A DNA stretch of 64,000 bases. Source: a virus (Duplodnaviria > Heunggongvirae > Uroviricota > Caudoviricetes). A model generated the notes under the pieces. That model did no database searches. It saw nothing but the letters and a program-made list of their open reading frames with translations, and was not told the origin of the DNA. Of the stretch, positions 1,386 to 14,612 are shown in pieces. Within the stretch, counting starts at the first letter, position 1. Every line of letters begins with the position of its first letter. The translations under genes and the position numbers were made by a program. The stretch is from IMG/VR virus record IMGVR_UViG_3300028888_000003. One strand, 5' to 3'.

Positions 1386-1440
1386 TAGACGTCGGACGTC
1401 TAAAAACCGACTTGACAATCCGGTTTTATTGTGGTATAAT
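1386..1440 (+). promoter_or_regulatory. palindrome TAGACGTCGGACGTCTA + sigma70-like promoter (TTGACA-17-TATAAT)
   Basis: 17-bp palindrome 1386-1402, -35 1412-1417, -10 1435-1440. Confidence 0.6.
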
Positions 1441-1470
1441 ACAGACACAATAAAGAAGGAGGTCATATTT

Positions 1471-1740
1471 ATGACACGTAAATTAAACTCAATGCCCTAC
1501 GCACAGGCTTATGTACGTATAGAAGGCGATACACTCACACTCATCTCATACCGCACCGCTGTTATCATCGTGGACGCTGAAGGCTGGCTCACCTGCACAG
1601 GCACCTATTCGAACACCACTCGCCGTCACATCGGACGCTTTATGCATGAATATGGATATGGTACCTATCAGCTTGCTAAGCGTTGTTATGAAGATAACTT
1701 GAAGTATAACATTTATACAGGAGAAATAATCAATATCTAA
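1471..1740 (+). CDS. hypothetical protein, paralog of 3503..3790
   Basis: RBS AAGGAGG 8 nt before ATG 1471; shares MPYAQA..GWL.CTG.YS.TT.RHIG.FM motif block with 3503 ORF; ORF-track start 1429 lies inside promoter. Confidence 0.65.
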   Translation: MTRKLNSMPYAQAYVRIEGDTLTLISYRTAVIIVDAEGWLTCTGTYSNTTRRHIGRFMHEYGYGTYQLAKRCYEDNLKYNIYTGEIINI

Positions 1741-1772
1741 TTAAAAGACGGGCAACCGTCTTTTTTATTTTT
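1741..1772 (+). terminator. intrinsic terminator
   Basis: AAAGACGGGCAACCGTCTTTTTTATTTTTT hairpin + T-run. Confidence 0.6.
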
Positions 1773-1829
1773 TAGACGTATTACGTCTAAAAACCGACTT
1801 GACAAATTAAATGAATTGTGGTATAATAT
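1773..1829 (+). promoter_or_regulatory. palindrome TAGACGTATTACGTCTA + TTGACA/TATAAT promoter
   Basis: palindrome 1773-1789; -35 1798-1803; TGGTATAAT -10. Confidence 0.6.
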
Positions 1830-1857
1830 AGACACAATAAAGAAGGAGGTTAATCGA

Positions 1858-2169
1858 ATGATTAATATAAGAACACTGCGCAAACTTAACAACAACGACG
1901 GCTTAACACTTAAAAATGGCAAGCCTATTGTATACAAGACCGGCTATCAGGTAGCTACTGAAGGCGTTGAGGTCACAACAATGGAGGAAGCTATGAAGGC
2001 TATCAAAGCCTATGGTGGCAACTGCGGTATCTGGGTAAGCGAGGGGATATGGTATATAGACTCAAGTCATAGGGAAGCTACTAAGAAGGAAGCTCTTCGA
2101 GTAGGGCGCGAACACAAGCAGATTTCAATTCTTAAGTGGACTACTATGGAACTTGTTTATTGTGATTAA
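1858..2169 (+). CDS. hypothetical protein
   Basis: RBS AAGGAGGT then ATG 1858; longer ORF-track start 1816 is within the -10 region. Confidence 0.6.
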   Translation: MINIRTLRKLNNNDGLTLKNGKPIVYKTGYQVATEGVEVTTMEEAMKAIKAYGGNCGIWVSEGIWYIDSSHREATKKEALRVGREHKQISILKWTTMELVYCD

Positions 2170-2217
2170 ATTATAAAAATTATCGTATAGAATACGGTAA
2201 TTTTATTTTCTATAATT

Positions 2218-2274
2218 TAGACGTCATACGTCTAAAAATAATACTTGACAAATTAAATTTTATATGTTATAATA
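2218..2274 (+). promoter_or_regulatory. palindrome TAGACGTCATACGTCTA + promoter
   Basis: palindrome 2218-2234; TTGACA 2245-2250; TGTTATAAT. Confidence 0.6.
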
Positions 2275-2279
2275 TAGTT

Positions 2280-2368
2280 GTAAGAGAACGAGGGACAGTC
2301 CCGAAGGTTATGCGATGAATTACACATCCGCCGACGGGCGTCACACAGACCTCGCTCTTACTTTTTTT
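2280..2368 (+). ncRNA. candidate promoter-driven small RNA (no ORF)
   Basis: transcript from the 2218 promoter lacks RBS/ORF; 5' GTAAGAGAACGAGG pairs with 3' CCTCGCTCTTAC followed by T7; internal GGGACAGTCCC hairpin. Confidence 0.4.
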
Positions 2369-2377
2369 AGAATTTTT

Positions 2378-2442
2378 TAGACGTAATACGTCTAATTTTT
2401 ATAGATTTTTTTATTGACTTTTTTACTTTATTATGTTATACT
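2378..2442 (+). promoter_or_regulatory. palindrome TAGACGTAATACGTCTA + TTGACT/TGTTATACT promoter
   Basis: palindrome 2378-2394; -35 2413-2418. Confidence 0.5.
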
Positions 2443-2474
2443 TTTATTAGAAAAGTTAAGGGAGGAATTTTCAA

Positions 2475-2576
2475 TGAAAATTACAGACTTTATGGCATCT
2501 CATTTTTATCTTATTATAGGGACTTTTTTCGCATTAATAATGGGAAGTTTAACAATTGATGCCCTTATTCATTAAG
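2475..2576 (+). CDS. small hydrophobic peptide (33 aa)
   Basis: strong RBS AAGGGAGGAATTTTCAATG; MKITDFMASHFYLIIGTFFALIMGSLTIDALIH; below ORF-track size cutoff. Confidence 0.45.
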
Positions 2577-2600
2577 GGCATTTTTCTTTTTCTTAATTTT

Positions 2601-2665
2601 TAGACGTAATACGTCTAAAAAATTTTCCCAAAACTATTGACTTCCCAAAATTATTATGATATAAT
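2601..2665 (+). promoter_or_regulatory. palindrome + TTGACT/TGATATAAT promoter
   Basis: palindrome 2601-2617. Confidence 0.6.
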
Positions 2666-2695
2666 ATAGACACAATAAAGAAAGGAAGTAACAAT

Positions 2696-2935
2696 ATGGA
2701 AAGAGTAACTATTTGTTACAAAACAAAAGAACCGGTTTACTATAACAAAGGAACATCGTATGAAAAAACTTGCGATACTTTTCTTAAAACTCAATGTTTT
2801 ATGGAAAAAGAAGAAGTTGAAAAAATTGTTAAATGGATGAATGAAGAGCATCCCGAAAAAGACAGTCTTGGAAATCCGATTGACTGGGATACAATAGATT
2901 ATTTTTTCGTAAATGTTCAAGAAGAACTTTATTAA
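2696..2935 (+). CDS. hypothetical protein
   Basis: 79-aa ORF, RBS AAAGGAAG, TAA stop. Confidence 0.6.
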   Translation: MERVTICYKTKEPVYYNKGTSYEKTCDTFLKTQCFMEKEEVEKIVKWMNEEHPEKDSLGNPIDWDTIDYFFVNVQEELY

Positions 2936-2991
2936 TAACAATTGTCCGAGAATTTCAAAATGAAATTCTTGGATTTTTTATCAATAGTTTT

Positions 2992-3079
2992 TAGACGTAA
3001 TACGTCTAAAAAATTCTATCTGACGTCTAAAAAAATTCTAAAAAATATTTGACTTTTCCAGAAACTTATGATATAATAC
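2992..3079 (+). promoter_or_regulatory. palindrome + extra half-site + TTGACT/TGATATAAT promoter
   Basis: palindrome 2992-3008, additional TGACGTCTAAAAAA half-site 3021-3034. Confidence 0.6.
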
Positions 3080-3135
3080 TATTGCAATCAAGAAAGATTG
3101 CAAAACAATTTACAAAATCAAGGAGGTTAAAACAA

Positions 3136-3348
3136 ATGAGTTTTAACAAAATAACAGAAGAAGACCGTATTCTCTGGGTTAAGTCAATGAATGAAATAAT
3201 CATAGACGAGGGTGACGAAATACTCTGGTATCGCTGGATTTCAATTGTACCTGATGAACCGCAAGAAGACGATTTCGAGTTCATCGCAAACGACGAAGAA
3301 CTTTGGAATGACTGTTGGAACTTTTTTGAAAAATATTTCTTTTGTTAA
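3136..3348 (+). CDS. hypothetical acidic protein
   Basis: RBS AAGGAGGTTAAAACAAATG; ORF-track start 3049 is inside promoter. Confidence 0.6.
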   Translation: MSFNKITEEDRILWVKSMNEIIIDEGDEILWYRWISIVPDEPQEDDFEFIANDEELWNDCWNFFEKYFFC

Positions 3349-3390
3349 AAGGAGGGACGGGAAACCGTCCCAATTTTTCACAATACTTTT

Positions 3391-3456
3391 TAGACGTAAT
3401 ACGTCTAAAAAATTTTCAGAAAAGTATTGACAAATTAATTGATATATGTTAATATA
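3391..3456 (+). promoter_or_regulatory. palindrome + TTGACA promoter
   Basis: palindrome 3391-3407; -35 3427-3432. Confidence 0.55.
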
Positions 3457-3502
3457 TATATGCAATTAAACAAAACTATAATTTAAAAAGTGAGGTAAAA
3501 TT

Positions 3503-3790
3503 ATGTATTGCAAAATTAGACCGTTAAAATTTATGCCCTATGCCCAGGCGCGCGTTCGTGAGTGGAAATGCGGCGATGTTGATTTAATGAGTTATGAAAC
3601 GCTTGTAATTGCGGTTCGTGACGGCTGGCTTGAATGCACTGGGGTGTATTCAAAAACGACAATGCGTCACATCGGTAACTTTATGCGTGAATTCGGTTTC
3701 GGTGATTATTATACTGCCAGGGATTTATATAAGAATGAACTGAAACTGAATGTTAATACGGGCGAAATTAAAAGCATTCGTGAACCGTAA
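3503..3790 (+). CDS. hypothetical protein, paralog of 1471..1740
   Basis: 95 aa; RBS GTGAGGTAAAATTATG; conserved block with 1471 ORF. Confidence 0.65.
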   Translation: MYCKIRPLKFMPYAQARVREWKCGDVDLMSYETLVIAVRDGWLECTGVYSKTTMRHIGNFMREFGFGDYYTARDLYKNELKLNVNTGEIKSIREP

Positions 3791-3845
3791 AATTAGGGCG
3801 AGATTTATAAAAAAATCTCGCCCGTTATTTTATAGAAAAGTTTTT

Positions 3846-3910
3846 TAGACGTAATACGTCTAAAAAACTTTATAGTTTTTGTTGACAAATTAAAAATAGT
3901 ATGATATAAT
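3846..3910 (+). promoter_or_regulatory. palindrome + TTGACA/TGATATAAT promoter
   Basis: palindrome 3846-3862. Confidence 0.6.
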
Positions 3911-3915
3911 ATAGT

Positions 3916-4040
3916 TGTCAAGGGGGGAGAGATAAGTGAGTTGCTCCTATTGGAAATCAGAAACCTTGTGCACGAGGATAAAGACAGAAACAAGCGTAGG
4001 CGACAAAATCTTCGTAAAAAAGTTGCAAATTTTTTACACT
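3916..4040 (+). ncRNA. candidate small RNA (ORF-less transcript)
   Basis: starts TTGTCAAGGGGGGAGAG, 3' end CTTTCCTCTTGACAAG pairs back and contains the -35 of the next promoter. Confidence 0.4.
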
Positions 4041-4046
4041 TTCCTC

Positions 4047-4076
4047 TTGACAAGCCTAAAAAATTATGATATAATA
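4047..4076 (+). promoter_or_regulatory. TTGACA-17-TGATATAAT promoter (no palindrome)
   Basis: consensus -35/-10. Confidence 0.55.
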
Positions 4077-4081
4077 TAGAT

Positions 4082-4165
4082 GTTGAAAGGTTCCGCTAAG
4101 CTCTTGGTGATTGTGGCGTGATTAAAGCATAGGTAGTTAAGGGGCTATCGCCTTTCAATAAAAGA
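4082..4165 (+). ncRNA. candidate small RNA
   Basis: GTTGAAAGG...CCTTTCAAT closing stem, no ORF, followed by next promoter. Confidence 0.4.
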
Positions 4166-4177
4166 CTTAAAAAACTC

Positions 4178-4206
4178 TTGACAAACTAAAAAATTTATGA
4201 TATAAT
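4178..4206 (+). promoter_or_regulatory. ACTCTTGACAA-17-TATAAT promoter
   Basis: consensus elements. Confidence 0.55.
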
Positions 4207-4232
4207 TTATATAGAAAGTGAGGGAAATCAAA

Positions 4233-4415
4233 ATGAAAATTGCAGAAACCTATAAGTTTGAAAAAATGTATGATAATCTTATTCACAAATACGGATATGA
4301 ACACCCTATTGTAATTCAGTTTGGTTCACTCGCAGAGCGATGGGACAATACAAATTGGAATAAGAAATGTATGGAAATACTCTATCGCACACTTATTGAA
4401 CAAGAAATCTCCTAA
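4233..4415 (+). CDS. hypothetical protein
   Basis: RBS AGTGAGGGAAATCAAAATG; 60 aa. Confidence 0.55.
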   Translation: MKIAETYKFEKMYDNLIHKYGYEHPIVIQFGSLAERWDNTNWNKKCMEILYRTLIEQEIS

Positions 4416-4482
4416 TTGTTTTACCTCCTTTATATATTGTGCGTTAGTCTGGGTTTTGCCCAGACTTTCGCATTGGAGTTTT

Positions 4483-4546
4483 TAGACGTAGTACGTCTAA
4501 TTTAATTTAGAAAAATTATTGACTTTTTACTTATTTATGATATAAT
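4483..4546 (+). promoter_or_regulatory. palindrome TAGACGTAGTACGTCTA + TTGACT promoter
   Basis: palindrome 4483-4499. Confidence 0.6.
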
Positions 4547-4551
4547 ATAAT

Positions 4552-4685
4552 TGTCAAGAGGAAATGACGACCATCGCAAGAAATCTTGTCCGAGTTGCAG
4601 TTAGTAACAGGTGTGTTAGCGAGCACGGAAGCCGACTAATACGGAGAGGACATTTGAAAAATTTTTAAAAACTTTTAAAAAACTC
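4552..4685 (+). ncRNA. candidate small RNA
   Basis: 5' TTGTCAAGAG is exact reverse complement of 3' CTCTTGACAA (which is the -35 of the next promoter); no ORF. Confidence 0.4.
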
Positions 4686-4714
4686 TTGACAAATTAAAAA
4701 AATTATGATATAAT
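4686..4714 (+). promoter_or_regulatory. TTGACA-17-TGATATAAT promoter
   Basis: consensus. Confidence 0.55.
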
Positions 4715-4746
4715 AATTACAGAAATTAAGAAAAGGAGATTTTAAA

Positions 4747-4941
4747 ATGAAAACTTATTATTTAAAATGGTACGATAAAAACGAAGAAAAACTAACAACT
4801 ATACTAATTAATGATAGTCAAAAAAAATTAATTGATTTTATGAGAGAGCATTTTCCAATAGATGATATGCTTTATAATGAAAGTATAAATATAACTATTG
4901 ATAGAGATGAGGAACCATTTTACAACCTTGCTGTTGATTAA
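4747..4941 (+). CDS. hypothetical protein
   Basis: RBS AAAAGGAGATTTTAAAATG; 64 aa. Confidence 0.6.
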   Translation: MKTYYLKWYDKNEEKLTTILINDSQKKLIDFMREHFPIDDMLYNESINITIDRDEEPFYNLAVD

Positions 4942-4990
4942 AAATAAAGTGTAAAGGTTAATATCTTTACACTTTTATTATATTGATTTT

Positions 4991-5056
4991 TAGACGTAAT
5001 ACGTCTAAAAATATTCAGTTTTAATACTTGACTTTTCTAAAAAAATATGATATAAT
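4991..5056 (+). promoter_or_regulatory. palindrome + TTGACT/TGATATAAT promoter
   Basis: palindrome 4991-5007. Confidence 0.6.
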
Positions 5057-5086
5057 GAATTTACAAAAAGAAAAGGAATGATAAAA

Positions 5087-5542
5087 ATGACCGAAATTGA
5101 AAAGGTTTTAGTAAAATTTGTAACTGATATTGACGAAGAACTTTCAGTAACTTTTGAAAAAGACGGATATTATTTTTTAAGTGCTGAAAACTGTATCAAT
5201 ATTGACTTAACAGATTTTGATGACTGCGGTTTTATTCGTCATCTTAAAGAATTTCACAATTGTAATTGGGCTGATAAATTTGATTTACACTTATGGTCAA
5301 TTCTTCACGAAATAGGACATTATGAAACTGAAGATTTACTTGACGAAGATACAGGCGAACAAGAAATTCGTTTTTGGTTATCACTTACTAATAAAGATAT
5401 AAGTCATAATATTAATATTCAAAATGAATATTTTAATCTCACAAGTGAGTATTATGCGACAGATTGGGCAAAAGATTGGATAATAAATCATAAAGAAGAA
5501 GCAAATAAAATTAGTAACTTAATTAAAAATGCGAGAAAATAA
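5087..5542 (+). CDS. hypothetical acidic protein
   Basis: ATG 5087 has proper spacing to AAAAGGAA; ORF-track start 5078 too close to RBS. Confidence 0.55.
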   Translation: MTEIEKVLVKFVTDIDEELSVTFEKDGYYFLSAENCINIDLTDFDDCGFIRHLKEFHNCNWADKFDLHLWSILHEIGHYETEDLLDEDTGEQEIRFWLSLTNKDISHNINIQNEYFNLTSEYYATDWAKDWIINHKEEANKISNLIKNARK

Positions 5543-5568
5543 TCTCGCATTTTGGTTTGCGAGATTTT

Positions 5569-5635
5569 TAGACGTATTACGTCTAAAATTATTATAATTT
5601 AACAATTGACTTTTATATAATTATAGTATATAATA
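5569..5635 (+). promoter_or_regulatory. palindrome + TTGACT promoter
   Basis: palindrome 5569-5585. Confidence 0.55.
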
Positions 5636-5668
5636 TGTATGTAAGAAAGAAAAGAAAGGAAGAAAAAA

Positions 5669-6058
5669 ATGATAATCAAAGCATATCGTATGTTTAGCGA
5701 CCCTTGTCTGATTTATGAAGGAACTAATTACAAAGAGGCAAAAAGAAAAGCCTTTGGACCATTAAAGCAAATAGGGCTTACAGAAAAAAATTATAAGACA
5801 CCCATAATAACTACTACTTGCAAAAGTTATCATAAAGTAATAACTTATTATCCTATCCGTAATCACACCATACAAGCAAAAGAAAATCCAAATTTTTTCT
5901 TTCACTCAATTATTTATTTTGATATTTACTTCAAGGATAAACTTGATGATTATGATATAGGATTAAGAGTCAAAAAAGGTGACCCCTTGGCATACAAATT
6001 AAGAGAAAAAAGAGATATAAAAAATGGAATAACACATTATCCTCGCAAATATTATTAA
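5669..6058 (+). CDS. hypothetical protein
   Basis: RBS GAAAGGAAGAAAAAAATG; 129 aa. Confidence 0.6.
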   Translation: MIIKAYRMFSDPCLIYEGTNYKEAKRKAFGPLKQIGLTEKNYKTPIITTTCKSYHKVITYYPIRNHTIQAKENPNFFFHSIIYFDIYFKDKLDDYDIGLRVKKGDPLAYKLREKRDIKNGITHYPRKYY

Positions 6059-6095
6059 AAGTCCGTTAAATCGGACTTTTATTTTTTATTTATTT

Positions 6096-6160
6096 TAGAC
6101 GTTATACGTCTAAAAAGTTTTCTAAAAACTATTGACAGATTGAAATTATTATGCTATAAT
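6096..6160 (+). promoter_or_regulatory. palindrome TAGACGTTATACGTCTA + TTGACA/TGCTATAAT promoter
   Basis: palindrome 6096-6112; terminator hairpin 6061-6090 just upstream. Confidence 0.6.
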
Positions 6161-6174
6161 AAAATCACAATAAA

Positions 6175-6200
6175 GGTTGCGACTTACCGCAGAGAAAGGA
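6175..6200 (+). promoter_or_regulatory. conserved 5' leader hairpin (stem TGCG/CGCA, loop ACTTACC) + purine-rich RBS
   Basis: GGTTGCGACTTACCGCAGAGAAAGG; same element at 7337, 11364, 15621 with compensatory stem changes. Confidence 0.5.
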
Positions 6201-6208
6201 AAAATATT

Positions 6209-7195
6209 ATGAAAATTACAAACACCCTTGACCTCACCAAAAAGAAAACGGGCGATTGGTCAATCAACGGAAAATTAGTTTCTGTATCTGAAGAGGAAGA
6301 CAATATTCTTATGCAGATTCACAACCGCTACCGCAATATGTATGAGAGCAACAGAGAGGCTGATTTTGCTACAATAAGTGGTATTCTTTCAACTGACCAC
6401 CCCTCTGTCGCACAGATACTCGGTATCGTGACCGAAGCTGTTGCCGAAGCCGTTGAAGCCGAAGCACCAAGAGAACTTACCGCAGAGGAAAAGAAAACGG
6501 CTACACTTGAAGCCATTAAGAAACTTATTTCTTTCTTTACAGAATTTGACTTTGAGCCGAACTACCGTTTTGTAAACACCCTTGCTCTGTCCCTTAAACA
6601 GGGTGAGAAAAAAGCAAAAGATTATATCACAAACTACTTTGAACTTACTGATAGTCCATTCAAAAAAGAAGTCGTGCAGAAAATGAAATCGGCAGAATTT
6701 AAGAGTATTCTCAATGATATTGCTCTTACAGAGCCGACCAAGACCATTAACAATCGTTTTAAACTCTACTATGGCTCACAGGGAACAGGCAAAACTACAA
6801 TCGGTATGAAAGAAACCGATAAGAGATGTATCGTATGTAACTCTTCAATGCTCCCTGCCGACCTTATGGAAGATTTTGTGTTCGTTGACGGAAAGGCAAC
6901 CTTTAAACCCTCATCACTTTGGCGGTGTATGACAGAGGGAAAGCCGATTGTCTTGGACGAAATCAATCTTCTGCCCTTTGATAGTCTGCGTTTCTTACAA
7001 GGCGTTCTTGACGGAAAGGCAAGTTTTGAATACAAGGGCAATACAGTTGAAATCAAAGAGGGTTTCAAAATTATCGGTACTATGAACCTTACTGTTAATG
7101 GTATGACTTACGGTTTGCCCGAACCTCTCGTTGATAGATGTGAGGAAACAAAGAAATTCAAACTGACCGCAAATGACCTCGTAAAAGCAATTTAA
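6209..7195 (+). CDS. MoxR-like AAA+ ATPase
   Basis: Walker A GSQGTGKT, Walker B IVLDEIN, sensor region; start at ATG after AGAGAAAGGAAAAATATT (ORF-track start 6140 is in the leader). Confidence 0.7.
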   Translation: MKITNTLDLTKKKTGDWSINGKLVSVSEEEDNILMQIHNRYRNMYESNREADFATISGILSTDHPSVAQILGIVTEAVAEAVEAEAPRELTAEEKKTATLEAIKKLISFFTEFDFEPNYRFVNTLALSLKQGEKKAKDYITNYFELTDSPFKKEVVQKMKSAEFKSILNDIALTEPTKTINNRFKLYYGSQGTGKTTIGMKETDKRCIVCNSSMLPADLMEDFVFVDGKATFKPSSLWRCMTEGKPIVLDEINLLPFDSLRFLQGVLDGKASFEYKGNTVEIKEGFKIIGTMNLTVNGMTYGLPEPLVDRCEETKKFKLTANDLVKAI

Positions 7196-7257
7196 GAAAA
7201 TTATATAACAGAAAAGAGGGGAGCAATCCCCTCCTTTCTCTTTCCCAAAAAAAGAAT

Positions 7258-7322
7258 TAGACGTCATACGTCTAAAAACTTTTCTATAAAATATTGACAA
7301 ACCACAAAACTTATGATATAAT
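7258..7322 (+). promoter_or_regulatory. palindrome TAGACGTCATACGTCTA + TTGACA/TGATATAAT promoter
   Basis: palindrome 7258-7274. Confidence 0.6.
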
Positions 7323-7336
7323 GTAGTTACAAATTA

Positions 7337-7362: not shown

Positions 7363-7372
7363 GAAACATATT

Positions 7373-8923
7373 ATGGAAATTACAAAAGGTGAAATCAAGG
7401 AAATTCTTGATACACTCCCTATCGGTTACTATGCCGACAGACCTATTGCCGTAAACATAAGTGAAACAGAGCCAACAAGTTTTTATAACCTTGAAAAAGA
7501 CGAAATCACTTTTGCTTATAGCAACATTGAACAAGCACTCGCAAATGTAGAAGATTTTAACAGAGAAACGGCTATAAGAAGTGTTCTCTATCACGAATTA
7601 AGTCACGCAATTCTCACTCCTCAAAATCTCATACTCACCTCTAAAACGGCAGATATGGTCAATATTTTTGAAGATGAAAGAATTGAAACCTTGCTCAAAG
7701 ACTTTTATCACGATACTGACTTTAAAGGTTTAGTAAAAGCCCTTAATGGTGATTTTACTCCGCAAGATAGTATGGATGCTTTTTTTCAAGTAGTTAGACA
7801 GAGAAAAGGCAAGCCCAAATTTCTTAAAAAAGTAAATGAAATCATTTACAAATATGCTATGCTTGGTCATAATTGTGACGGACACGGCTGTTGGCAAGAT
7901 GGCAGATGGACAATCAATCAGTATGTAGAGGATATTGAAACCCTCTATGACGAAATAGCAAAGGACTTTAATGCTAATCCGCAAGACTATAAAAATCCTC
8001 TCTCAATATCTAATAGTGGCAATGAGAATAGCGATTTTCTTGATGAAAAATCGTGGATAAAAAATGCTATGGAATGCGGTTATTCAAAAGAAGAAGCCGA
8101 AAAACTCTTTGAAGAACTCAAAAAGCATATTGACGGAAATGAAAACGACAACGACAATGAGTATTGCGAAGCCAAAGAGGGCGAAGGCGATACCGAGTGC
8201 AATGGTGAGCAAGACAAAGACCACAATGGTTTTGGTAAACTAATTATTAAAAAAGGTTTTGGCGGTGAAACCATTTCAAACTTGACCGATAAACTTTCCG
8301 CAATTATCTCAATATTTAATAAGAAAAATGCAAGCGGTAGTGCTTTCACAAGTTATAGTGGTGTTATCAATCCTAAATTGTGCGGTAATAATGACTATCG
8401 TTTCTTTGAGAGAAAAGCCGAAGCAAGAGGAAACAATCGTTTTGGTAGTTTGCACCTTACACTTTGGATAGATACAAGCGGTAGTTTTTATACCAATAAA
8501 AACAAAACAAATGCTCTCATAAAATCACTTGAACTCATTGAAAAGAAAAACCCCAATTTTTCCCTTGACGTTGTTCATTGTTCTTGCGGTCAAAGGTTAA
8601 TGCCTAAAAACAATAGGTTTATCGACCCCGATGGTGGCAACCGCCTTACAAACGAGGTTTTTGACCTTTACAGACAGTTACAGAAAGGCAACACATACAA
8701 TTATAATATATTCCTCTTTGACGGCGAGGCTATGCCTGACAGGAATAATGACACAAATACTGCCTTTAACAAAGTTGATTTTAATAACTGTCTATTCATT
8801 TCCGATTATGATAACGAGAGATATTTGAAAACTCTCAAATCGGCACAAGTTATTCTCACAAGCAATTATGTAAATGAACTTTATGATAATGTGTTTACCG
8901 CATTACACAAAGCATTTAGATAA
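7373..8923 (+). CDS. VWA-domain protein with N-terminal HExxH metallopeptidase-like motif
   Basis: LYHELSHAIL (HExxH); MIDAS-like WIDTSGSF; 516 aa; genomic partner of the MoxR-like ATPase. Confidence 0.65.
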   Translation: MEITKGEIKEILDTLPIGYYADRPIAVNISETEPTSFYNLEKDEITFAYSNIEQALANVEDFNRETAIRSVLYHELSHAILTPQNLILTSKTADMVNIFEDERIETLLKDFYHDTDFKGLVKALNGDFTPQDSMDAFFQVVRQRKGKPKFLKKVNEIIYKYAMLGHNCDGHGCWQDGRWTINQYVEDIETLYDEIAKDFNANPQDYKNPLSISNSGNENSDFLDEKSWIKNAMECGYSKEEAEKLFEELKKHIDGNENDNDNEYCEAKEGEGDTECNGEQDKDHNGFGKLIIKKGFGGETISNLTDKLSAIISIFNKKNASGSAFTSYSGVINPKLCGNNDYRFFERKAEARGNNRFGSLHLTLWIDTSGSFYTNKNKTNALIKSLELIEKKNPNFSLDVVHCSCGQRLMPKNNRFIDPDGGNRLTNEVFDLYRQLQKGNTYNYNIFLFDGEAMPDRNNDTNTAFNKVDFNNCLFISDYDNERYLKTLKSAQVILTSNYVNELYDNVFTALHKAFR

Positions 8924-8975
8924 CAGAGAAAAGTGTAAAGGGGAAACCCTTTACACTCTTTTTCTATTACAAATT

Positions 8976-9041
8976 TAGACGTAATACGTCTAAAAAATAC
9001 CATAAAAGTATCTTGACAAATACTTTATAATGTGTTATACT
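8976..9041 (+). promoter_or_regulatory. palindrome + TTGACA promoter
   Basis: palindrome 8976-8992. Confidence 0.55.
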
Positions 9042-9084
9042 AATCTTGTAATCAAGGAGATAATAAAAGAAAGGAAAGAATTAA

Positions 9085-9558
9085 ATGAAACTGTTAATAA
9101 TCTTTATTGTCTTAAATGTGGTCAATGTTATAATGCAGACCGTCAAATCAATAGCAACTCTTAAATGTGGTAAGGTAGTAGCAAGTCTTATCAATGCTAT
9201 AACCTACGGACTTTATACTGTTGTAATTGTATATATGGTTTGCGAATTACCTTTATGGCTGAAAGCCCTCATAATCGGCTTAGCCAATCTTTTCGGTGTT
9301 TACTTTGTTAAATTATTTGAAGAAAAAGTAAGAAAAGATAAACTTTGGAAAGTTGAATGTAATATCAATTCCGAAAATTTCACACAATTTTATGATACAA
9401 TTCGAGGAATAGGCATTCCGTTTAATTTTAATCCGACAAACAATGGTTATATTACTGTAAATCTTTTCTGCGAAACACAAAAAGAAAGTCACACAATAAA
9501 AGAAATCTTAAATAAATTTGATATTAAGTATTTTGTTACTGAAACAAAAACTCTTTGA
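9085..9558 (+). CDS. membrane protein (3 predicted TM helices) with soluble C-terminal domain
   Basis: hydrophobic N-terminal 90 aa; RBS AAAGGAAAG. Confidence 0.55.
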   Translation: MKLLIIFIVLNVVNVIMQTVKSIATLKCGKVVASLINAITYGLYTVVIVYMVCELPLWLKALIIGLANLFGVYFVKLFEEKVRKDKLWKVECNINSENFTQFYDTIRGIGIPFNFNPTNNGYITVNLFCETQKESHTIKEILNKFDIKYFVTETKTL

Positions 9559-9605
9559 TTACACAAGAAAGGTCGGGCAACCGACTTTTTCTTGTTATAG
9601 AATTT

Positions 9606-9680
9606 TAGACGTATTACGTCTAAAAATATTTAAAATAAATAGAAAAAAGTATTGACTTTAAAAATATTATATGATATAAT
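9606..9680 (+). promoter_or_regulatory. palindrome + TTGACT/TGATATAAT promoter
   Basis: palindrome 9606-9622. Confidence 0.6.
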
Positions 9681-9717
9681 AAAGATGTTCCAAAGGGGCA
9701 GAAAGGAAGGAAAAAAT

Positions 9718-10053
9718 ATGAAACTTGCAAGTGCAAACAAAATTCGGGAAACCGAAATCCGCAAAATTTTTGAGTTCTACGGCGGTGCTGAGAATGATTG
9801 CGGTATGATTGCCTCAAACTCGTTTAATATTCCTATTGTTGCAGAGAACGGAGAAGAAGGTTGGCTTGAAGTTGTCGCAAAAGTAACTAAAGATAACGGT
9901 GATGACGGCTACCTTAAAAGACAGGCTTATGAAATCAATCTTGCGGACAAGGCAAAAAGGAAAGCCGAAGTCGAAAAAAAGAAAGCTAAAAAAATAGCCG
10001 CCGATGAAAAGCGGAGAGCAGAGCTCAAAGCAAAAGCAGAGCCGACCGCATAA
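9718..10053 (+). CDS. hypothetical protein with K/A/E-rich tail; paralog of 14803..15147
   Basis: shared IxSNSFNxPIVAxNGEEGW block; RBS AGAAAGGAAGGAAAAAATATG. Confidence 0.65.
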   Translation: MKLASANKIRETEIRKIFEFYGGAENDCGMIASNSFNIPIVAENGEEGWLEVVAKVTKDNGDDGYLKRQAYEINLADKAKRKAEVEKKKAKKIAADEKRRAELKAKAEPTA

Positions 10054-10097
10054 GACAAAGAGTGGAGGAAACTCCACTCCATCTTTATCCATAATTT

Positions 10098-10174
10098 TAG
10101 ACGTAGTACGTCTAAAAACCATTAAAAAAATTTTTTTAAAAGGTATTGACAAATAAATAATACTATGATATAAT
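10098..10174 (+). promoter_or_regulatory. palindrome TAGACGTAGTACGTCTA + TTGACA/TGATATAAT promoter
   Basis: palindrome 10098-10114; leader hairpin CTTGTCAAGTAGGGAG...CTCCCTA...GACAAG follows. Confidence 0.6.
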
Positions 10175-10239
10175 TATCTTGTCAAGTAGGGAGAGCGATG
10201 GCAAACTCCCTATAATATAAGACAAGAAAGGAAAATCGT

Positions 10240-11109
10240 ATGAATTACGAAAAAAAGGTTGACCGCAGAAAAAAGTATTATTTAATACTTGATTGCGAAA
10301 CCGCAACACTCCCTTGTGCCGAAAGTTATGGTGCAGAGGAAAAGAAAATAATAGCAATAGCAAAACCCCTTATCTATGATTTAGGTTGGCAGATTATTGA
10401 CCGCAAAGGAAAAGTGTATAGCAGAAAATCTTATTTGATTTCTGAAATATTTTCCGTTCCCTCAATTTTCAATACCGCCTATTACGCAAGCAAAAGACCT
10501 ATCTATCTTGACCGCCTTGCAAAAAACGAAACAGTATTGACCGATTGGAAAACGGCTACGGCAGACCTCGTTACCGATATGGAAAAGGTCGAAAGCATAG
10601 GTGCTTATAATTCTATGTTTGATTTCAAAAAAGCAATACCCTTTACAGAGTTGTATATCAACAAACTGTATTCGCAAGACTATTATGAGTGGGAAAAAAT
10701 GCAAACCGCAATTTGTGAGCATATTGCAAAAGGCAATTACTCCACAAAAAGCAGTAAAAACTTTGAACACGATTTGTTCCGTTTTCGTGGCAAGGAATAC
10801 CCTCTCTTTGATATATGGGGATTGAGTTGTCAGCACATACTTAATAATGACAAGTATAAGCAGACTTGTCTTGACAATTCGTGGCGGACCGCAAGTGGTA
10901 AGTATTTCAAAACCTCTGCTGAAACTTGTTATCGCTTTTTCAAAGGCAACAATGAATTTGAAGAAAGCCACACCGCCATTGACGATAGCACGATTGAAAG
11001 TGAACTGTTCACCGAAATTCTCAAAAGAACAAATAACAATTTTGCTATGGGCATAACTTATTTTCCGTTCCGTATTCTCGGCAAGGTTGAGGAATTTTCC
11101 TCGCCTTGA
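10240..11109 (+). CDS. DnaQ-like 3'-5' exonuclease (DEDDh)
   Basis: Exo I LILDCETA, Exo II YNSMFDF, Exo III HTAIDDS. Confidence 0.7.
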   Translation: MNYEKKVDRRKKYYLILDCETATLPCAESYGAEEKKIIAIAKPLIYDLGWQIIDRKGKVYSRKSYLISEIFSVPSIFNTAYYASKRPIYLDRLAKNETVLTDWKTATADLVTDMEKVESIGAYNSMFDFKKAIPFTELYINKLYSQDYYEWEKMQTAICEHIAKGNYSTKSSKNFEHDLFRFRGKEYPLFDIWGLSCQHILNNDKYKQTCLDNSWRTASGKYFKTSAETCYRFFKGNNEFEESHTAIDDSTIESELFTEILKRTNNNFAMGITYFPFRILGKVEEFSSP

Positions 11110-11161
11110 CCGAAAGGGTGTAAAGGAGAAATCCTTTACACCCATTTTCCTATTATAAATT

Positions 11162-11227
11162 TAGACGTAATACGTCTAAAAAATATTCAAAAAAAGTATT
11201 GACTTTTTAGTCACAATCGTTTATAAT
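11162..11227 (+). promoter_or_regulatory. palindrome + TTGACT promoter
   Basis: palindrome 11162-11178. Confidence 0.55.
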
Positions 11228-11285
11228 AAGGGTGTAATCAAGAGAGAGCAAAAAAACAAAAAATAAAAAAAGTTGAGAAAACCCC

Positions 11286-11314
11286 TTGACAAATTAAAAA
11301 TTGTATGCTATAAT
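11286..11314 (+). promoter_or_regulatory. CCCCTTGACAA-17-TGCTATAAT promoter
   Basis: consensus. Confidence 0.55.
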
Positions 11315-11363
11315 ATAAATGTAATCAAGAGGAACGCAAACCTCTTGTTGCAATAAAAAATAG

Positions 11364-11384
11364 GGTGGTGACCGACACCATAGC
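11364..11384 (+). promoter_or_regulatory. leader hairpin variant (TGGTG ACCGA CACCA)
   Basis: loop ACCGAC resembles ACCTAC elements; followed by AGAAAGGAAAG RBS. Confidence 0.4.
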
Positions 11385-11407
11385 CAAAAGGCAGAAAGGA
11401 AAGCACT

Positions 11408-11800
11408 ATGACAAGAAAAGACTACAATCTCGGAGTAATCGCAATCCTCAACGGCAACGAGGTAGCAGAGGACACTCGCAACGAAATCCTTGCCTATGCT
11501 GAAAGCGATAATCAGAAAATCGCAGACCGCAACGCAAAGAGAGCCTCCACTCCCTCAAAGGCACAGAAAGAAAATGAGCCTCTTTACCCTGCTATCCTTG
11601 CTACCCTCAACGCAGATACTCCCACTCTCTCTACCGCAGTTGCTACTACCACAGGTCTGAAAACGCAGAAAGTTACAGGTCTGCTTGGTAATCTTCTGAA
11701 AGAAGGCAAAGTAACAAAGGTATCTGTGCCTGTCAAGGGCAAGGGTAAACAGACAGGTTGGTTGCTTGTTATGAATGATACTGACTCCCTTGTAGACTAA
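11408..11800 (+). CDS. hypothetical protein; paralog of 15654..15995
   Basis: shared NAKRA../P(L/I)Y(P/D)A(I/L)(L/A)A.L motif and C-terminal VKGKG region. Confidence 0.6.
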   Translation: MTRKDYNLGVIAILNGNEVAEDTRNEILAYAESDNQKIADRNAKRASTPSKAQKENEPLYPAILATLNADTPTLSTAVATTTGLKTQKVTGLLGNLLKEGKVTKVSVPVKGKGKQTGWLLVMNDTDSLVD

Positions 11801-11881
11801 CAGATTTTTATCGGTAAGACTACTAAAGTAACCTTTGGGTGTAAAGGGGAAACCCTTTACACCTTTTACTTAAAATAAATT

Positions 11882-11946
11882 TAGACGTAATACGTCTAAA
11901 AACTTTTATATAAACTATTGACAAATTAAAAACTGTATGCTATAAT
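11882..11946 (+). promoter_or_regulatory. palindrome + TTGACA/TGCTATAAT promoter
   Basis: palindrome 11882-11898. Confidence 0.6.
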
Positions 11947-11966
11947 GTATACAAGAGGTGAAGAAA

Positions 11967-12101
11967 ATGACAAAGAAACGAATGAAAGCCGAAAACAATA
12001 AAAAAAGAAGTTCTTGGTTTGGTGTCAATCCGCAAATGAAAGTTATTCCTAATAAGAAAAAAGAAAACGAAAAAAGAAAATGCAGAAGAAAGGAGTTTTA
12101 A
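11967..12101 (+). CDS. small basic peptide (44 aa)
   Basis: RBS AGAGGTGAAGAAAATG; K/R-rich. Confidence 0.4.
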   Translation: MTKKRMKAENNKKRSSWFGVNPQMKVIPNKKKENEKRKCRRKEF

Positions 12102-12103
12102 TT

Positions 12104-12289
12104 ATGTATTCAATACACTTTATTTATGATGATATTTATGACATAATAAATTTTGCGAATTTTCACGAAATGATGGATTTCGTTGTTGATTTGGCAAAGG
12201 TTGATACTAAATGTCAGTTTATTATCCGTAATGAAATAGGTGAAACAATTTATAAGTATATCAATCTTGAAAAAAGAGAGGAGTATTAA
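12104..12289 (+). CDS. hypothetical protein
   Basis: RBS GAAAGGAGTTTTAATTATG; ORF-track start 12080 overlaps upstream peptide. Confidence 0.55.
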   Translation: MYSIHFIYDDIYDIINFANFHEMMDFVVDLAKVDTKCQFIIRNEIGETIYKYINLEKREEY

Positions 12290-12290
12290 A

Positions 12291-12479
12291 ATGACAGTAA
12301 AAGATTTAATTAAAGTTCTTGAAACCTACCCACAAGAAGCAACTGTTTTTTATGAAGAGGTTAGTAATGAACTTGAAAAAACAGACATTTATGTAGAAAC
12401 CATTGAAGAAATATTAAAAACTATACCTATGGAACTTATTGATAGGAACTGTCGCAACGGCATAGTCATTTTTCCTTAA
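12291..12479 (+). CDS. hypothetical acidic protein
   Basis: RBS AGAGAGGAGTATTAAAATG. Confidence 0.55.
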   Translation: MTVKDLIKVLETYPQEATVFYEEVSNELEKTDIYVETIEEILKTIPMELIDRNCRNGIVIFP

Positions 12480-12512
12480 AATTAAAAGTCCAATAAAATG
12501 GACTTTTACCCC

Positions 12513-12541
12513 TTGACAAATCAAAAATTCTATGGTATAAT
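12513..12541 (+). promoter_or_regulatory. CCCCTTGACAA-17-TGGTATAAT promoter
   Basis: consensus; preceded by terminator hairpin 12482-12510. Confidence 0.55.
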
Positions 12542-12596
12542 AATTACAGAAATTAAGAAATATTGTATACATACCAGAATGAAAGGATGAATATAA

Positions 12597-12971
12597 ATGA
12601 CAGTAGAAACAAAATATATTGCATATGATAGTAAAGTATTTGATGACGATGATAAATGTGCAGAATATGAATGGCATAATATTGTAGTTCCAGATTTATT
12701 TAACAAATATATTGAAATGTATTTTAGAGAAGAATCTAAAAGAGATTTATCTAATTATACTATTGCTGACTTCTATGATGATTTGATTAATTGTGAATAT
12801 ATGGTAATAAAAGAAAATATACCAGATGATAGTATTATTTTAGATTATGTAGTGTCAAGATATGGCATTCGGATACCAGTAAAAAGAGGTAAATATAGAT
12901 ATGATATTTATTCTGCTAATGGTTGGGAGAAATATGAATATGTTGAACCTGTTAAGTGTATATTTAACTAA
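12597..12971 (+). CDS. hypothetical protein
   Basis: 124 aa, RBS GAAAGGATG. Confidence 0.55.
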   Translation: MTVETKYIAYDSKVFDDDDKCAEYEWHNIVVPDLFNKYIEMYFREESKRDLSNYTIADFYDDLINCEYMVIKENIPDDSIILDYVVSRYGIRIPVKRGKYRYDIYSANGWEKYEYVEPVKCIFN

Positions 12972-13040
12972 TGGAGGTGATACTAAATGAATATGCCGAT
13001 TTTTATGAAATTATCGAGGTATTAGAAAGGAAAAAACAAA

Positions 13041-13286
13041 ATGAAAACTATTTTTATTATCTATTGTGTTACAGTAATTATCTCATTACTTAACGAGTGT
13101 ATCGGATTTTTTGCAGTTAGAGAAATGGCAAAAAAGGGTACAGAATTTAAGAGAAGTAAAATGCCGAAAACTATCGCAACATTCAGGTTATTTTTTGTTG
13201 CATTAATCCCCATTTTTAATGTTATAATTACTCTTTTAGTCTTAATCTGCTTTAACAAAGTAATAAACTCTTTTATTGAAAATTAA
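13041..13286 (+). CDS. small membrane protein (2 TM)
   Basis: hydrophobic helices; RBS AGAAAGGAAAAAACAAAATG. Confidence 0.55.
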   Translation: MKTIFIIYCVTVIISLLNECIGFFAVREMAKKGTEFKRSKMPKTIATFRLFFVALIPIFNVIITLLVLICFNKVINSFIEN

Positions 13287-13324
13287 AAGTCCGTTTTAAC
13301 GGGCTTTTATTTTACTATAGTTTT

Positions 13325-13391
13325 AGACGTATTACGTCTAAATTTATTTAAAATAAATACTTGACTTTTTATTAAAATTGATATATAATAT
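13325..13391 (+). promoter_or_regulatory. palindrome + TTGACT/TATATAAT promoter
   Basis: palindrome 13325-13341. Confidence 0.6.
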
Positions 13392-13396
13392 AGATG

Positions 13397-13535
13397 TTGA
13401 AAGGAGAAAATTACCACGGATTCGGTGTGATGACTTTCAACTACCATATCAGACGGAAGGCTTTAAATCCCACCAAAAACCAGCGTGGGTGGTAAGGAAA
13501 TCAAGAGGTAGTAAAATTGAAAAATTTTGAAAAAA
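13397..13535 (+). ncRNA. candidate small RNA
   Basis: GTTGAAAGG...CTTTCAAC stem; CCCACCAAAAACCAGCGTGGGTGG hairpin; no ORF. Confidence 0.4.
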
Positions 13536-13539
13536 AGTA

Positions 13540-13568
13540 TTGACAATCCTTTCGTGGTATGGTATAAT
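13540..13568 (+). promoter_or_regulatory. TTGACA-17-TGGTATAAT promoter
   Basis: consensus. Confidence 0.55.
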
Positions 13569-13573
13569 ATAAG

Positions 13574-13705
13574 TGTCAAGAGAGGTCGGCAGAGTGCGAC
13601 TTTGCTCCCATAGAGGATAGAGTTCTCACAAAGATAAGTCTGCATAACATCGAGTAAGAGGAACTAAAGGACAGTTGAAAATTTTGCAGAGATTTTCAAA
13701 ACTCT
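13574..13705 (+). ncRNA. candidate small RNA
   Basis: 5' GTCAAGAGAG complementary to 3' CTCTCTTGAC (next -35); no ORF. Confidence 0.4.
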
Positions 13706-13706
13706 C

Positions 13707-13735
13707 TTGACATTTATAAAACAATATGATATAAT
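13707..13735 (+). promoter_or_regulatory. TTGACA-17-TGATATAAT promoter
   Basis: consensus. Confidence 0.55.
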
Positions 13736-13767
13736 AATTACAGAAATTAAGAAAAGGAGATTTTAAA

Positions 13768-13977
13768 ATGAAAGTTCATGTATTTAGAAAAAACATTGTA
13801 ACATTTTCAGAAATTGAATCTGGAGAAATTTTTGAATTTGAAGACAATTTTTATATGAAAATAGAAACAAAAGGGTCGAGATATAATGCAGTCAGCATAT
13901 ACACAGGAAGCATTTGTATGTTTGATGATGATGAAGAAGTCACAAGAGTTAAATCAGCACTTAATATTGAAATGTAA
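13768..13977 (+). CDS. hypothetical protein
   Basis: 69 aa; RBS AAAAGGAGATTTTAAAATG (same leader as 4747 gene). Confidence 0.6.
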   Translation: MKVHVFRKNIVTFSEIESGEIFEFEDNFYMKIETKGSRYNAVSIYTGSICMFDDDEEVTRVKSALNIEM

Positions 13978-13995
13978 ATTTTAGGGAGGAATTAA

Positions 13996-14166
13996 AATGC
14001 TTGAATATTTATGGGTAGTTATTTGTGATGAACAAATTATTTTTGTATCGCCAAATATTAAAGATTGCATTCAATATCAAAATGCCTTCTATGAAAATAC
14101 AGGAGAAGATACAGAAATAGAACAATTTTTCTACAAGAAAAAACTTCAATGGTATCTTGAAGATTA
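13996..14166 (+). CDS. hypothetical protein (56 aa)
   Basis: RBS GGGAGGAATTAAAATG; below ORF-track cutoff. Confidence 0.45.
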
Positions 14167-14200
14167 AAAGTCCGATAAATCGGACTTTTTATTTTATATA
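14163..14200. terminator. bidirectional intrinsic terminator
   Basis: AAAAGTCCGATAAATCGGACTTTTTTATTTT (A-run/hairpin/T-run). Confidence 0.6.
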
Positions 14201-14205
14201 TTTTT

Positions 14206-14222
14206 TAGACGTCATACGTCTA
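14206..14222. promoter_or_regulatory. palindrome TAGACGTCATACGTCTA without downstream + promoter; extra half-site 14256-14268
   Basis: sits inside the transcript of the minus-strand promoter at 14288-14316. Confidence 0.5.
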
Positions 14223-14287
14223 ATTCCAAAAAGTCAAATTTTCTCACCAAATTTTTAGACGTCACCAGAAAAAGGTATCCCTTCCCC

Positions 14288-14608: not shown

Positions 14609-14612
14609 TTTT

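Follow-up and report, generated by a model that had tools for sequence, protein, structure and literature searches.

The left part of a 64,000-nucleotide stretch of the virus record IMGVR_UViG_3300028888_000003 (IMG/VR; Caudoviricetes), analysed here over its whole length and called the window, carries 20 perfect copies of a 17-bp palindrome, TAGACGT-N3-ACGTCTA (TAGACGTNNNACGTCTA), 19 of them directly ahead of near-consensus early promoters. The palindrome is probably an operator in double-stranded DNA, bound by a sequence-specific dimer that acts together with host RNA polymerase from one helical face. Selection on the two arms, a strict register with the −35 hexamer and symmetric, phased variants in sister lineages all argue for this reading. 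They thereby support the preliminary description, made from the letters of the window, which had suggested that a dimeric protein bound to such an operator co-regulates the early regulon.

In the mechanism that we favour, a dimer would bind the two half-sites, one helical turn apart, and with its centre at about −54 plus whole turns would touch RNA polymerase. The most plausible contact would be with the flexible alpha C-terminal domains, which could also use the phased A-tracts between palindrome and −35. By its near-universal presence at early sigma-A-type promoters, the palindrome would tie ~19 separately terminated cassettes into one regulon. We infer both the dimer binding and the polymerase contact from sequence. 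If the mechanism is right, one small DNA word controls the host-takeover gene set of widespread uncultured large phages of ruminant gut Firmicutes.

Twenty palindromes in the early cassette block

Counted over the whole 64 kb, exactly 20 perfect matches to TAGACGTNNNACGTCTA were found, the number first described, and all are confined to the early cassette block (1386–14222); the other ~50 kb has none. Allowing one mismatch added no site, and 100 dinucleotide-preserving shuffles gave 0 matches, with a chance expectation of 0. All but one of the coordinates first listed were correct, the copy assigned to 13325 starting at 13324. The centre triplets were also as described: AAT nine times, ATT four, CAT three, AGT two, and TAT and CGG once each. 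The arms are 7–8 bp long around the 3-bp centre, and the half-sites lie 10 bp apart, centre to centre. Written as a duplex, the core is TTAGACG(T)-N3-(A)CGTCTAA, and the duplex versions of the site are TTTAGACGTAATACGTCTAAA and TTTTTAGACGTAATACGTCTAAAAA. The T5/A5 flanks, common in the window, are not invariant; only TT...AA is constant. Beyond the palindromes, the half-site 8-mer TTAGACGT/ACGTCTAA occurs just twice in isolation in the 64 kb. These two had been among three extra half-sites reported earlier and are exact, one ACGTCTAA at 3023–3030 between palindrome 6 and its promoter, the other TTAGACGT followed by CA at 14255–14262; the third, placed at 1346, is a degenerate 7/8 match (TTAGACGC) at 1349–1356.

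Each copy was said to lie 10–35 bp upstream of a near-consensus promoter. This is so for 19 of the 20, with promoters of the type TTGAC(A/T)-17-(TG)nTATAAT and a measured distance to the −35 hexamer of 9–40 bp; downstream of the last copy (14206) there is no promoter on the + strand. A terminator upstream of every copy had likewise been claimed, and a clear hairpin plus T-run was found for ~18 of 20 but not for the remaining ~2. Seven secondary promoters without a palindrome were confirmed (4047, 4178, 4686, 11286, 12513, 13540 and 13707). Six of these come after transcripts that lack an open reading frame (ORF), while that at 12513 directly follows a terminator instead.

Such a repeat could also act as an RNA or single-strand hairpin, that is, as a back-up terminator, a processing or stability signal of read-through transcripts, or a protein-independent cruciform or curved DNA. 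With its T/A flanks it folds into an 8–12 bp stem (−6.7 to −9.5 kcal/mol as DNA; z −3.8 to −5.8), a short leftward transcript starting at the 14316–14288 promoter would include the last copy, and bacteria of the candidate phyla radiation (CPR) have the same core within longer hairpins. Five copies (2378, 4483, 5569, 13324 and 14206) have no A-run 3′ of the palindrome; in three of these (2378, 4483 and 13324) T-rich DNA comes next, and these three have terminator-like scores. The earlier statement that the palindrome is not an intrinsic terminator holds for most copies, with these three as possible exceptions. About 15–17 of the 20 are followed by an A-run and stand 3′ of a proper terminator, and copies in that position would be largely untranscribed. 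Moreover, register is kept with the downstream promoter and not with the upstream transcript end, the sequence itself is frozen within the genome beyond what pairing demands, and no compensating change accompanies the mismatch seen most often, that at the innermost arm base. We therefore give a hairpin function only a very slight chance.

Register between palindrome and promoter

For 380 non-redundant sites of the clade, each given its orientation by the promoter, the distance from palindrome to −35 hexamer was measured. This gap was 8–11 bp in 230 sites, 18–22 bp in 74, 28–32 bp in 40 and 38–43 bp in 13; together with a fifth class of 49–54 bp, these gaps take in 360 of 370 oriented sites. 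No oriented site had a gap of 12–17, 23–27 or 33–37 bp. Taking the T of TTGACA as −35, the palindrome centre lies across the clade at −54, −63/−64, −73/−74, −84/−85 or −95. The window follows suit, with centres at −53/−54 (3 sites), −63/−64 (13), −73/−75 (2) and −84 (1). The periodicity peaks at 10–11 bp (circular statistic R = 0.76–0.87), with a Rayleigh p of ~1e-35 for the 140 sites beyond the first gap class. Sites that failed the strict promoter filter mostly had weaker hexamers (TTGCAA, TTGCAT) and retained the 10-bp gap. Unlike the distance to −35, the distance to the upstream terminator is loose. The spacers between palindrome and promoter are diverse in sequence, often with phased A-tracts, which argues that the register is selected and not inherited through duplication or copy-paste.

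The same modules are sites of exchange. The window and the closely related loci L271 and L272 are mosaics: blocks of homology have their ends at the terminator-palindrome-promoter modules and stand in a different order from genome to genome. The palindrome might therefore be mainly a recombination joint, kept for shuffling early ORFan cassettes as a mobile regulatory cassette. A precedent exists in the promoter early stem-loop elements (PeSLs) of T4-type phages, in which a terminator and a near-consensus early promoter surround small variable ORFs, and where close relatives differ by insertions, deletions and replacements (PMC2839356, PMC4122927). The composite of terminator and early sigma-70-type promoter located at replacement junctions in L271 and L272 resembles a PeSL. 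In PeSLs, however, the stem-loop is itself the terminator and is loosely conserved, whereas here an invariant, phased palindrome stands between a separate, variable terminator and the promoter; phage lineage and host phylum also differ from those of T4-type phages. Homologous recombination needs neither a particular sequence nor a helical register, and it predicts neither a free 3-bp centre between frozen arms nor symmetric two-arm variants. Since ~70–90 bp of near-identical regulatory DNA stands at each boundary, cassette shuffling is expected as a consequence; as recombination explains neither register nor free centre, it is very unlikely to be the palindrome's reason.

Conservation and selection in relatives

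In total, ~470 copies of the palindrome were found, in 55 IMG/VR phage contigs and in phage-like contigs of metagenome-assembled genomes (MAGs) from ruminant guts. The exact 19-mer TTAGACGT-N3-ACGTCTAA is present in 78 stretches of the 55 IMG/VR contigs, usually with 5–23 copies per cluster. Proteins adjoining the sites in relatives are only 30–70% identical to those of the window. Across these relatives, 469 sites are perfect and 35 have one mismatch, which in 24 of the 35 falls at the innermost arm base and is uncompensated. Another 14 sites have two mismatches, 11 of them belonging to one minor species, TATACGT-N3-ACGTATA.

Eight palindromes are positionally orthologous between the window and L271. 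They keep 112 of 112 arm bases, while the centre triplet differs in 7 of the 8 and the flanks are 43–97% identical. Overall the centre is A/T-rich and otherwise free, with no strong orientation bias. The arms are thus under absolute purifying selection while centre and flanks drift. Frozen arms, a free centre and uncompensated mismatches together point to two symmetric half-sites read on duplex DNA and not to a hairpin selected for structure only.

In a scan of genome contigs, the matches listed included multi-copy sites only in phage-like contigs binned with Clostridia, Eubacteriales and Acutalibacteraceae MAGs, and none was a chromosome with several sites. The listed single-site matches were at about chance level. 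Exceptions were one site in Paenarthrobacter that looks like an operator, and a hairpin repeat of greater length in CPR bacteria. The CPR/Patescibacteria repeat (L080–L193: Giovannonibacteria, Wolfebacteria, Nealsonbacteria and Saccharibacteria) is a hairpin CAC-TTAGACGTC(C/G)GACGTCTAA-GTG with several copies in each; its outer stems vary, its core is common with the phage palindrome, and it is well above chance for ~1-Mb genomes. A literature search met the palindrome string only in primer sequences. Rfam, at gathering and E-value thresholds, returned tRNAs and noise only, with nothing for the palindrome or the ORF-less transcripts. If the operator reading is right, the palindrome also gives a sequence rule by which early promoters, and the borders between cassettes, can be marked in hundreds of phage contigs from metagenomes.

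Symmetric variants in sister lineages

Relatives without the exact site were gathered through the winged-helix protein family described below. Several carry a different palindrome in the same register: TAGACGA-N3-TCGTCTA with centres at −57, −68 and −78 (9 loci), TAGATGT-N3-ACATCTA at −54, CGTACGT-N3-ACGTACG at −53, and GTAGTCT-N4-AGACTAC at −53.5, −63.5 and −73.5. One sub-lineage retains TTAGACG-N5-CGTCTAA with an unconstrained 5-bp centre. Within a genome the variant copies are identical, and between lineages both arms switch together. Joint evolution of the operator set and the specificity of its reader would fit this pattern, and such lineage-private, symmetric variants mildly favour a phage-encoded factor; on this ground we lean somewhat towards a phage gene and away from a host gene. 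With ~20 sites changing together, the variants form a natural series for the study of operator-reader co-evolution.

Other relatives have unphased, more distal palindromes: GAACATATGTTC, TTGTTAA-N5-TTAACAA and GTTAG-N6-CTAAC. The first is a perfect Firmicutes LexA (Cheo) box, present in 8–15 copies per locus (L204, L207, L216, L219, L228, L236 and others) that lie ahead of early promoters without helical phasing; a CCCGGGCG motif and TTGTTAA-N5-TTAACAA often accompany it. The box suggests SOS-linked control of early genes in those sister phages. The window has no LexA (Cheo) box GAAC-N4-GTTC. GTTAG-N6-CTAAC is the dominant intergenic palindrome of sister phages L200, L213 and L229, and the window has two palindromes of this type, GTTAGCATAG(A/G)CTAAC at 1330–1345 and 1366–1381, in direct repeat just before the first TAGACGT site; the degenerate half-site at 1349–1356 lies between them. 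A further palindrome, TTGTGAA-N4-TTCACAA, which we take to be the Rex-box consensus, occurs in 2–5 copies in the early regions of L221, L235, L238 and others, and also in the cultured Enterococcus phage EF1 (L274: 11441, 11782, 17741).

Candidate readers and a nuclease-fold protein

The preliminary description had suggested a search for regulators with a helix-turn-helix. The region encodes two winged-helix proteins, neither tied to the palindrome: one inside the cluster (11408–11800, + strand) and its paralogue g15654 (15654–15995, + strand) just outside it, under a second promoter class. Both are candidate DNA-binding proteins, the latter a candidate dimer. The g15654 model (AlphaFold2 pLDDT 90.8) comprises a long helix and a winged helix-turn-helix (wHTH), and the predicted fold was matched by regulators (PadR, MarR, VanR) and by the wHTH domain through which plant O-methyltransferases dimerise; signals at the sequence level are weak for this family. 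It is core to the clade, with 2–4 paralogues per genome. The g9718/g14803 family (fam1) was also considered as reader, and its covariation with palindrome type shows no clean pattern. Searches of the early proteins against Pfam and PHROGs mostly gave no matches, and a Serglycin match was discarded as spurious, arising from GS linkers in the query. A site oligonucleotide of 21–25 bp would be a direct handle for pull-down of the early regulator.

One further lead, and only that, is g446 (446–961, + strand), the first gene of the region, which has its own promoter and no palindrome and encodes a PD-(D/E)XK restriction-endonuclease fold. E31, D51, E68 and K70 are invariant, the E-D-ExK signature is intact, and the protein belongs to a superfamily, NUC14/15, joined with an hhalign probability of 96%. 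NUC14/15 was found only in loci with phased ACGT-class palindromes and the unrelated NUC11/12 only with other palindrome classes; the two are mutually exclusive. This distribution has no one-to-one map to palindrome subtypes and is confounded by phylogeny: the same TAGACGT site goes with NUC14 or NUC15 (~28% identical), and NUC15 goes with three different palindromes. It is unlikely, in our estimate, that the palindromes are cognate sites of fast-evolving NUC14/15 proteins recruited, at each boundary between early cassettes, as a promoter-proximal specificity factor or a programmed self-nicking enzyme. Were it so, control of the early regulon would be coupled to cassette shuffling, with a private site-enzyme pair in each lineage.

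A broader form of this idea is that the palindromes are targets of the phage's own g446-family protein, which would cut or nick at every cassette boundary or, as a domesticated nuclease, be bound there; its action may end early transcription, create recombination or replication ends, or move cassettes. Besides the invariant catalytic-type residues, the leading position of g446 without a palindrome of its own and the confinement of NUC14/15 to phased ACGT-class loci, the near-absolute conservation and interrupted symmetry of the sites are typical of such enzymes, and cassettes are indeed exchanged at these modules. But cutting leaves the strict helical register with −35 unexplained, and to the loose, phylogenetically confounded pairing of nuclease and palindrome is added that sixteen specified bp go far beyond what a type II enzyme reads and that 20 intact self-sites would require protection of the genome. 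We regard this explanation as quite unlikely.

Several observations weigh against the operator reading itself. With core promoters near consensus already, an activator would be less needed. Some 90% of the sites show no deviation over 14 bp, a strictness above that of most transcription-factor regulons and nearer to nuclease-type recognition. The last copy (14206) is promoterless, three copies could act as terminators, and a host regulon may carry the same site. Among the early-region proteins compared, none covaries cleanly with palindrome type. Finally, the best-conserved winged-helix paralogue keeps the same helix, STQKASALLRQLV, across all palindrome types, and the use of one recognition helix with quite different palindromes makes this paralogue an unlikely reader.

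Direction of regulation and comparison with known systems

Within the clusters, we compared TG-extended promoters with a 17-bp spacer for their match to consensus. A full 12/12 match was seen in 40 of 65 palindrome-less promoters versus 53 of 195 palindrome-linked ones (Fisher p = 1e-6), and in the window in 7/7 versus 8/19. Because the palindrome-less promoters are closer to consensus, activation is mildly favoured. The difference fits a delayed-early class in need of a helper beside constitutive immediate-early promoters, and we put it at slightly better than even that the palindrome acts in recruitment or activation, marking delayed-early genes switched on by an immediate-early or injected factor. 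Palindrome-less promoters can reach the first operon (446–1254), both winged-helix genes and several small genes. The strength of the core promoters makes contact repression for early shut-off credible as well, and shut-off of the contact type, as by phi29 p4 or GalR, is a real possibility with a probability of about one in three. To a role as insulator, or another role, we assign a small chance.

The operator reading has parallels in activator sites of class I type, such as those of CRP at −61.5, −71.5 and −82.5 in Escherichia coli and the CcpA cre at ~−56 of ackA/pta in Bacillus subtilis. These too are inverted repeats for a dimer, upstream of −35 and at positions whole helical turns apart, a spacing that implies contact with RNA polymerase, usually via the alpha C-terminal domain. 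Unlike those systems, the phage uses a single type of site for ~20 promoters within 13 kb; these sites stand next to near-consensus promoters, and ~90% of them are perfect over 14 bp. Phage phi29 encodes p4, a dimer whose targets are inverted repeats upstream of sigma-A promoters and which contacts the alpha C-terminal domain; it activates a weak promoter from a site near −82 and represses a strong early promoter (A2c) by over-stabilising polymerase. phi29 has a handful of CTTTTT-N15-AAAATG sites and requires p6, whereas here many identical sites have a short spacer, and no p4 homologue was seen in this phage. The MotA box of T4 lacks symmetry, stands at −30 in place of the −35 element and depends on AsiA. 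Like MotA boxes, the palindrome is a phage-specified motif on a whole temporal class of promoters, with a phage factor (putative here) acting on host polymerase; in contrast to them, it is symmetric, lies far upstream and leaves the −35 hexamer intact.

In layout, the early block resembles the module for host takeover in SPO1 (Herelleviridae), ~12–13 kb of small early genes in many short operons with strong sigma-A promoters and ribosome-binding sites (PMC6873191), and its synteny is that of distant Enterococcus relatives. For SPO1, no iterated palindrome is described. The system is thus of a known kind, an operator-defined phage regulon; it is unusual in its copy number, its near-absolute conservation across a diverged clade, its strict phasing, its lineage-private variants and its position at cassette joints. 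An expression unit built of terminator, operator, phased A-tracts and consensus promoter would be small, insulated and under common control, and could find new uses in Firmicutes.

Individual sites of the window

The first two palindromes are centred at −53. Palindrome 1 (1386–1402, centre CGG; −35 at 1412–1417, −10 at 1435–1440) is followed by gene 1471–1740, and palindrome 2 (1773–1789, ATT; −35 1799–1804, −10 1822–1827) by gene 1858–2169. At −54, palindrome 3 (2218–2234, CAT; −35 2245–2250, −10 2268–2273) precedes an ORF-less transcript of ~100 nt.

The −63 class comprises eight sites. Palindrome 4 (2378–2394, AAT; −35 2414–2419, −10 2437–2442) serves a small ORF that ends at 2575 and, with the T-run behind it, could also serve as a terminator. 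Palindromes 5 (2601–2617, AAT; −35 2637–2642, −10 2660–2665) and 7 (3391–3407, AAT; −35 3427–3432, −10 3450–3455) precede genes 2696–2935 and 3503–3790. Behind palindrome 8 (3846–3862, AAT; −35 3882–3887, −10 3905–3910) come ORF-less transcripts, the promoters at 4047 and 4178, and gene 4233–4415; the former promoter, palindrome-less (4047–4075, + strand), matches consensus at 12/12. Palindrome 9 (4483–4499, AGT; −35 4519–4524, −10 4541–4546, with a 16-bp spacer) is similarly followed by an ORF-less transcript, the promoter at 4686 and gene 4747–4941. Palindrome 12 (6096–6112, TAT; −35 6132–6137, −10 6155–6160) precedes gene 6209–7195, which encodes an AAA_5 ATPase, palindrome 13 (7258–7274, CAT; −35 7294–7299, −10 7317–7322) gene 7373–8923, and palindrome 18 (11882–11898, AAT; −35 11918–11923, −10 11941–11946) genes from 11967 to 12479.

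At −64 are palindromes 10 (4991–5007, AAT; −35 5028–5033, −10 5051–5056; gene 5087–5542), 11 (5569–5585, ATT; −35 5606–5611, −10 5629–5634; gene 5669–6058) and 14 (8976–8992, AAT; −35 9013–9018, −10 9036–9041; gene 9085–9558). Palindrome 17 (11162–11178, AAT; −35 11199–11204, −10 11222–11227), in the same position, is followed by the palindrome-less promoter 11286 and gene 11408–11800, and palindrome 19 (13324–13340, ATT; −35 13361–13366, −10 13384–13389) by ORF-less transcripts, the promoters 13540 and 13707, and genes 13768–14167. Three sites lie farther out: palindrome 15 (9606–9622, ATT; −35 9652–9657, −10 9675–9680) at −73 before gene 9718–10053; palindrome 16 (10098–10114, AGT; −35 10146–10151, −10 10169–10174) at −75 before gene 10240–11109, a DEDD-like exonuclease by motifs read by eye; and palindrome 6 (2992–3008, AAT; −35 3049–3054, −10 3072–3077) at −84 before gene 3136–3348.

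Palindrome 20 (14206–14222, CAT) ends the cluster without a + strand promoter, and relatives have an equivalent terminal copy. A strong promoter on the − strand (14316–14288, TTGACT-17-TGgTATAAT) is aimed at it and at a bidirectional terminator (14166–14189); it would yield an RNA of ~100 nt with palindrome 20 inside.

Phage context and neighbouring features

The window comes from a large phage that is Herelleviridae-like and not T4-like. Its left 16 kb consists of small + strand genes, each with a strong promoter and an AGGAGG-type ribosome site; a − strand block follows, with a tRNA cluster, RNA ligase, PhoH, Clp protease, an SPFH protein, a kinase and phosphoesterases. Megablast of positions 1–15000 against INPHARED phages found nothing, nor did tblastn with the winged-helix protein against known phages. 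A search with the exonuclease against known phages found only distant Enterococcus Herelleviridae-like phages, with ~28% protein identity and the same synteny; such a palindrome was not found in the equivalent region of Enterococcus phage EF1. Close relatives stem from sheep rumen assemblies. Those farther away were met in viromes of rumen and gut, and in phage-like contigs of buffalo and goat that had been binned with Clostridia, Eubacteriales or Acutalibacteraceae MAGs.

ORF-less transcripts between tandem strong promoters span 2275–2370, 3916–4040, 4080–4170, 4552–4680, 13395–13535, 13575–13700, 15180–15320 and 15365–15520. Several have closing stems (TTGTCAAG...CTTGACAA-like, GTTGAAAGG...CCTTTCAAC), and in some relatives a tRNA-like GGTTCGAATCC arm closes the equivalent units; the transcripts may represent small RNAs of the phage. 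A second promoter class, TTGA(T/A)(T/A)-17-TATAAT, lies at 14724–14752, 15144–15172, 15329–15357 and 15531–15559. It has a conserved ATATATATAGAAAGTGAGAGAGAAA start region and no palindrome, is kept in relatives, and drives g14803, two ORF-less RNAs and g15654.

A small, conserved 5′ UTR hairpin, GGTTGCGACCTACCGCAGAGAAAGGA, recurs just before the ribosome-binding site at 6179–6190, 7343–7354 and 15626–15637 (also in L029), ahead of the genes for the AAA_5 ATPase, a 516-aa protein and winged-helix g15654; it looks like a translational operator. The first two of these genes form a pair, a MoxR-like AAA_5 ATPase (6209–7195) followed by the 516-aa protein with a weak metallopeptidase-like N-terminus, to 8923, that is unusual for an early host-takeover block and is otherwise present only in L054. 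Paralogous early genes occur as 9718–10053 with 14803–15147, 1471–1740 with 3503–3790, and 11408–11800 with 15654–15995. In the first of these pairs (fam1), which is core to the whole clade, the beta-rich N-terminal domain is conserved and the tail is lysine-rich.

Non-coding, repeat-rich DNA at 14230–14700 and 16160–16500 contains ACCAT/ACCAC runs, GCTGC(G/A) repeats, (AT)n and inverted GTCAAATTT/AAATTTGAC; in relatives L029, L050, L062 and L132, equivalent GTCAAATTTT-rich DNA follows the last palindrome. For the repeat-rich DNA at the cluster end, possible roles are those of an origin, a packaging site or an end region of the genome. At the far end of the window (56000–64000, − strand), a tail-fibre-like region is split into many short ORFs with gaps, which could reflect introns, frameshifts or assembly errors.

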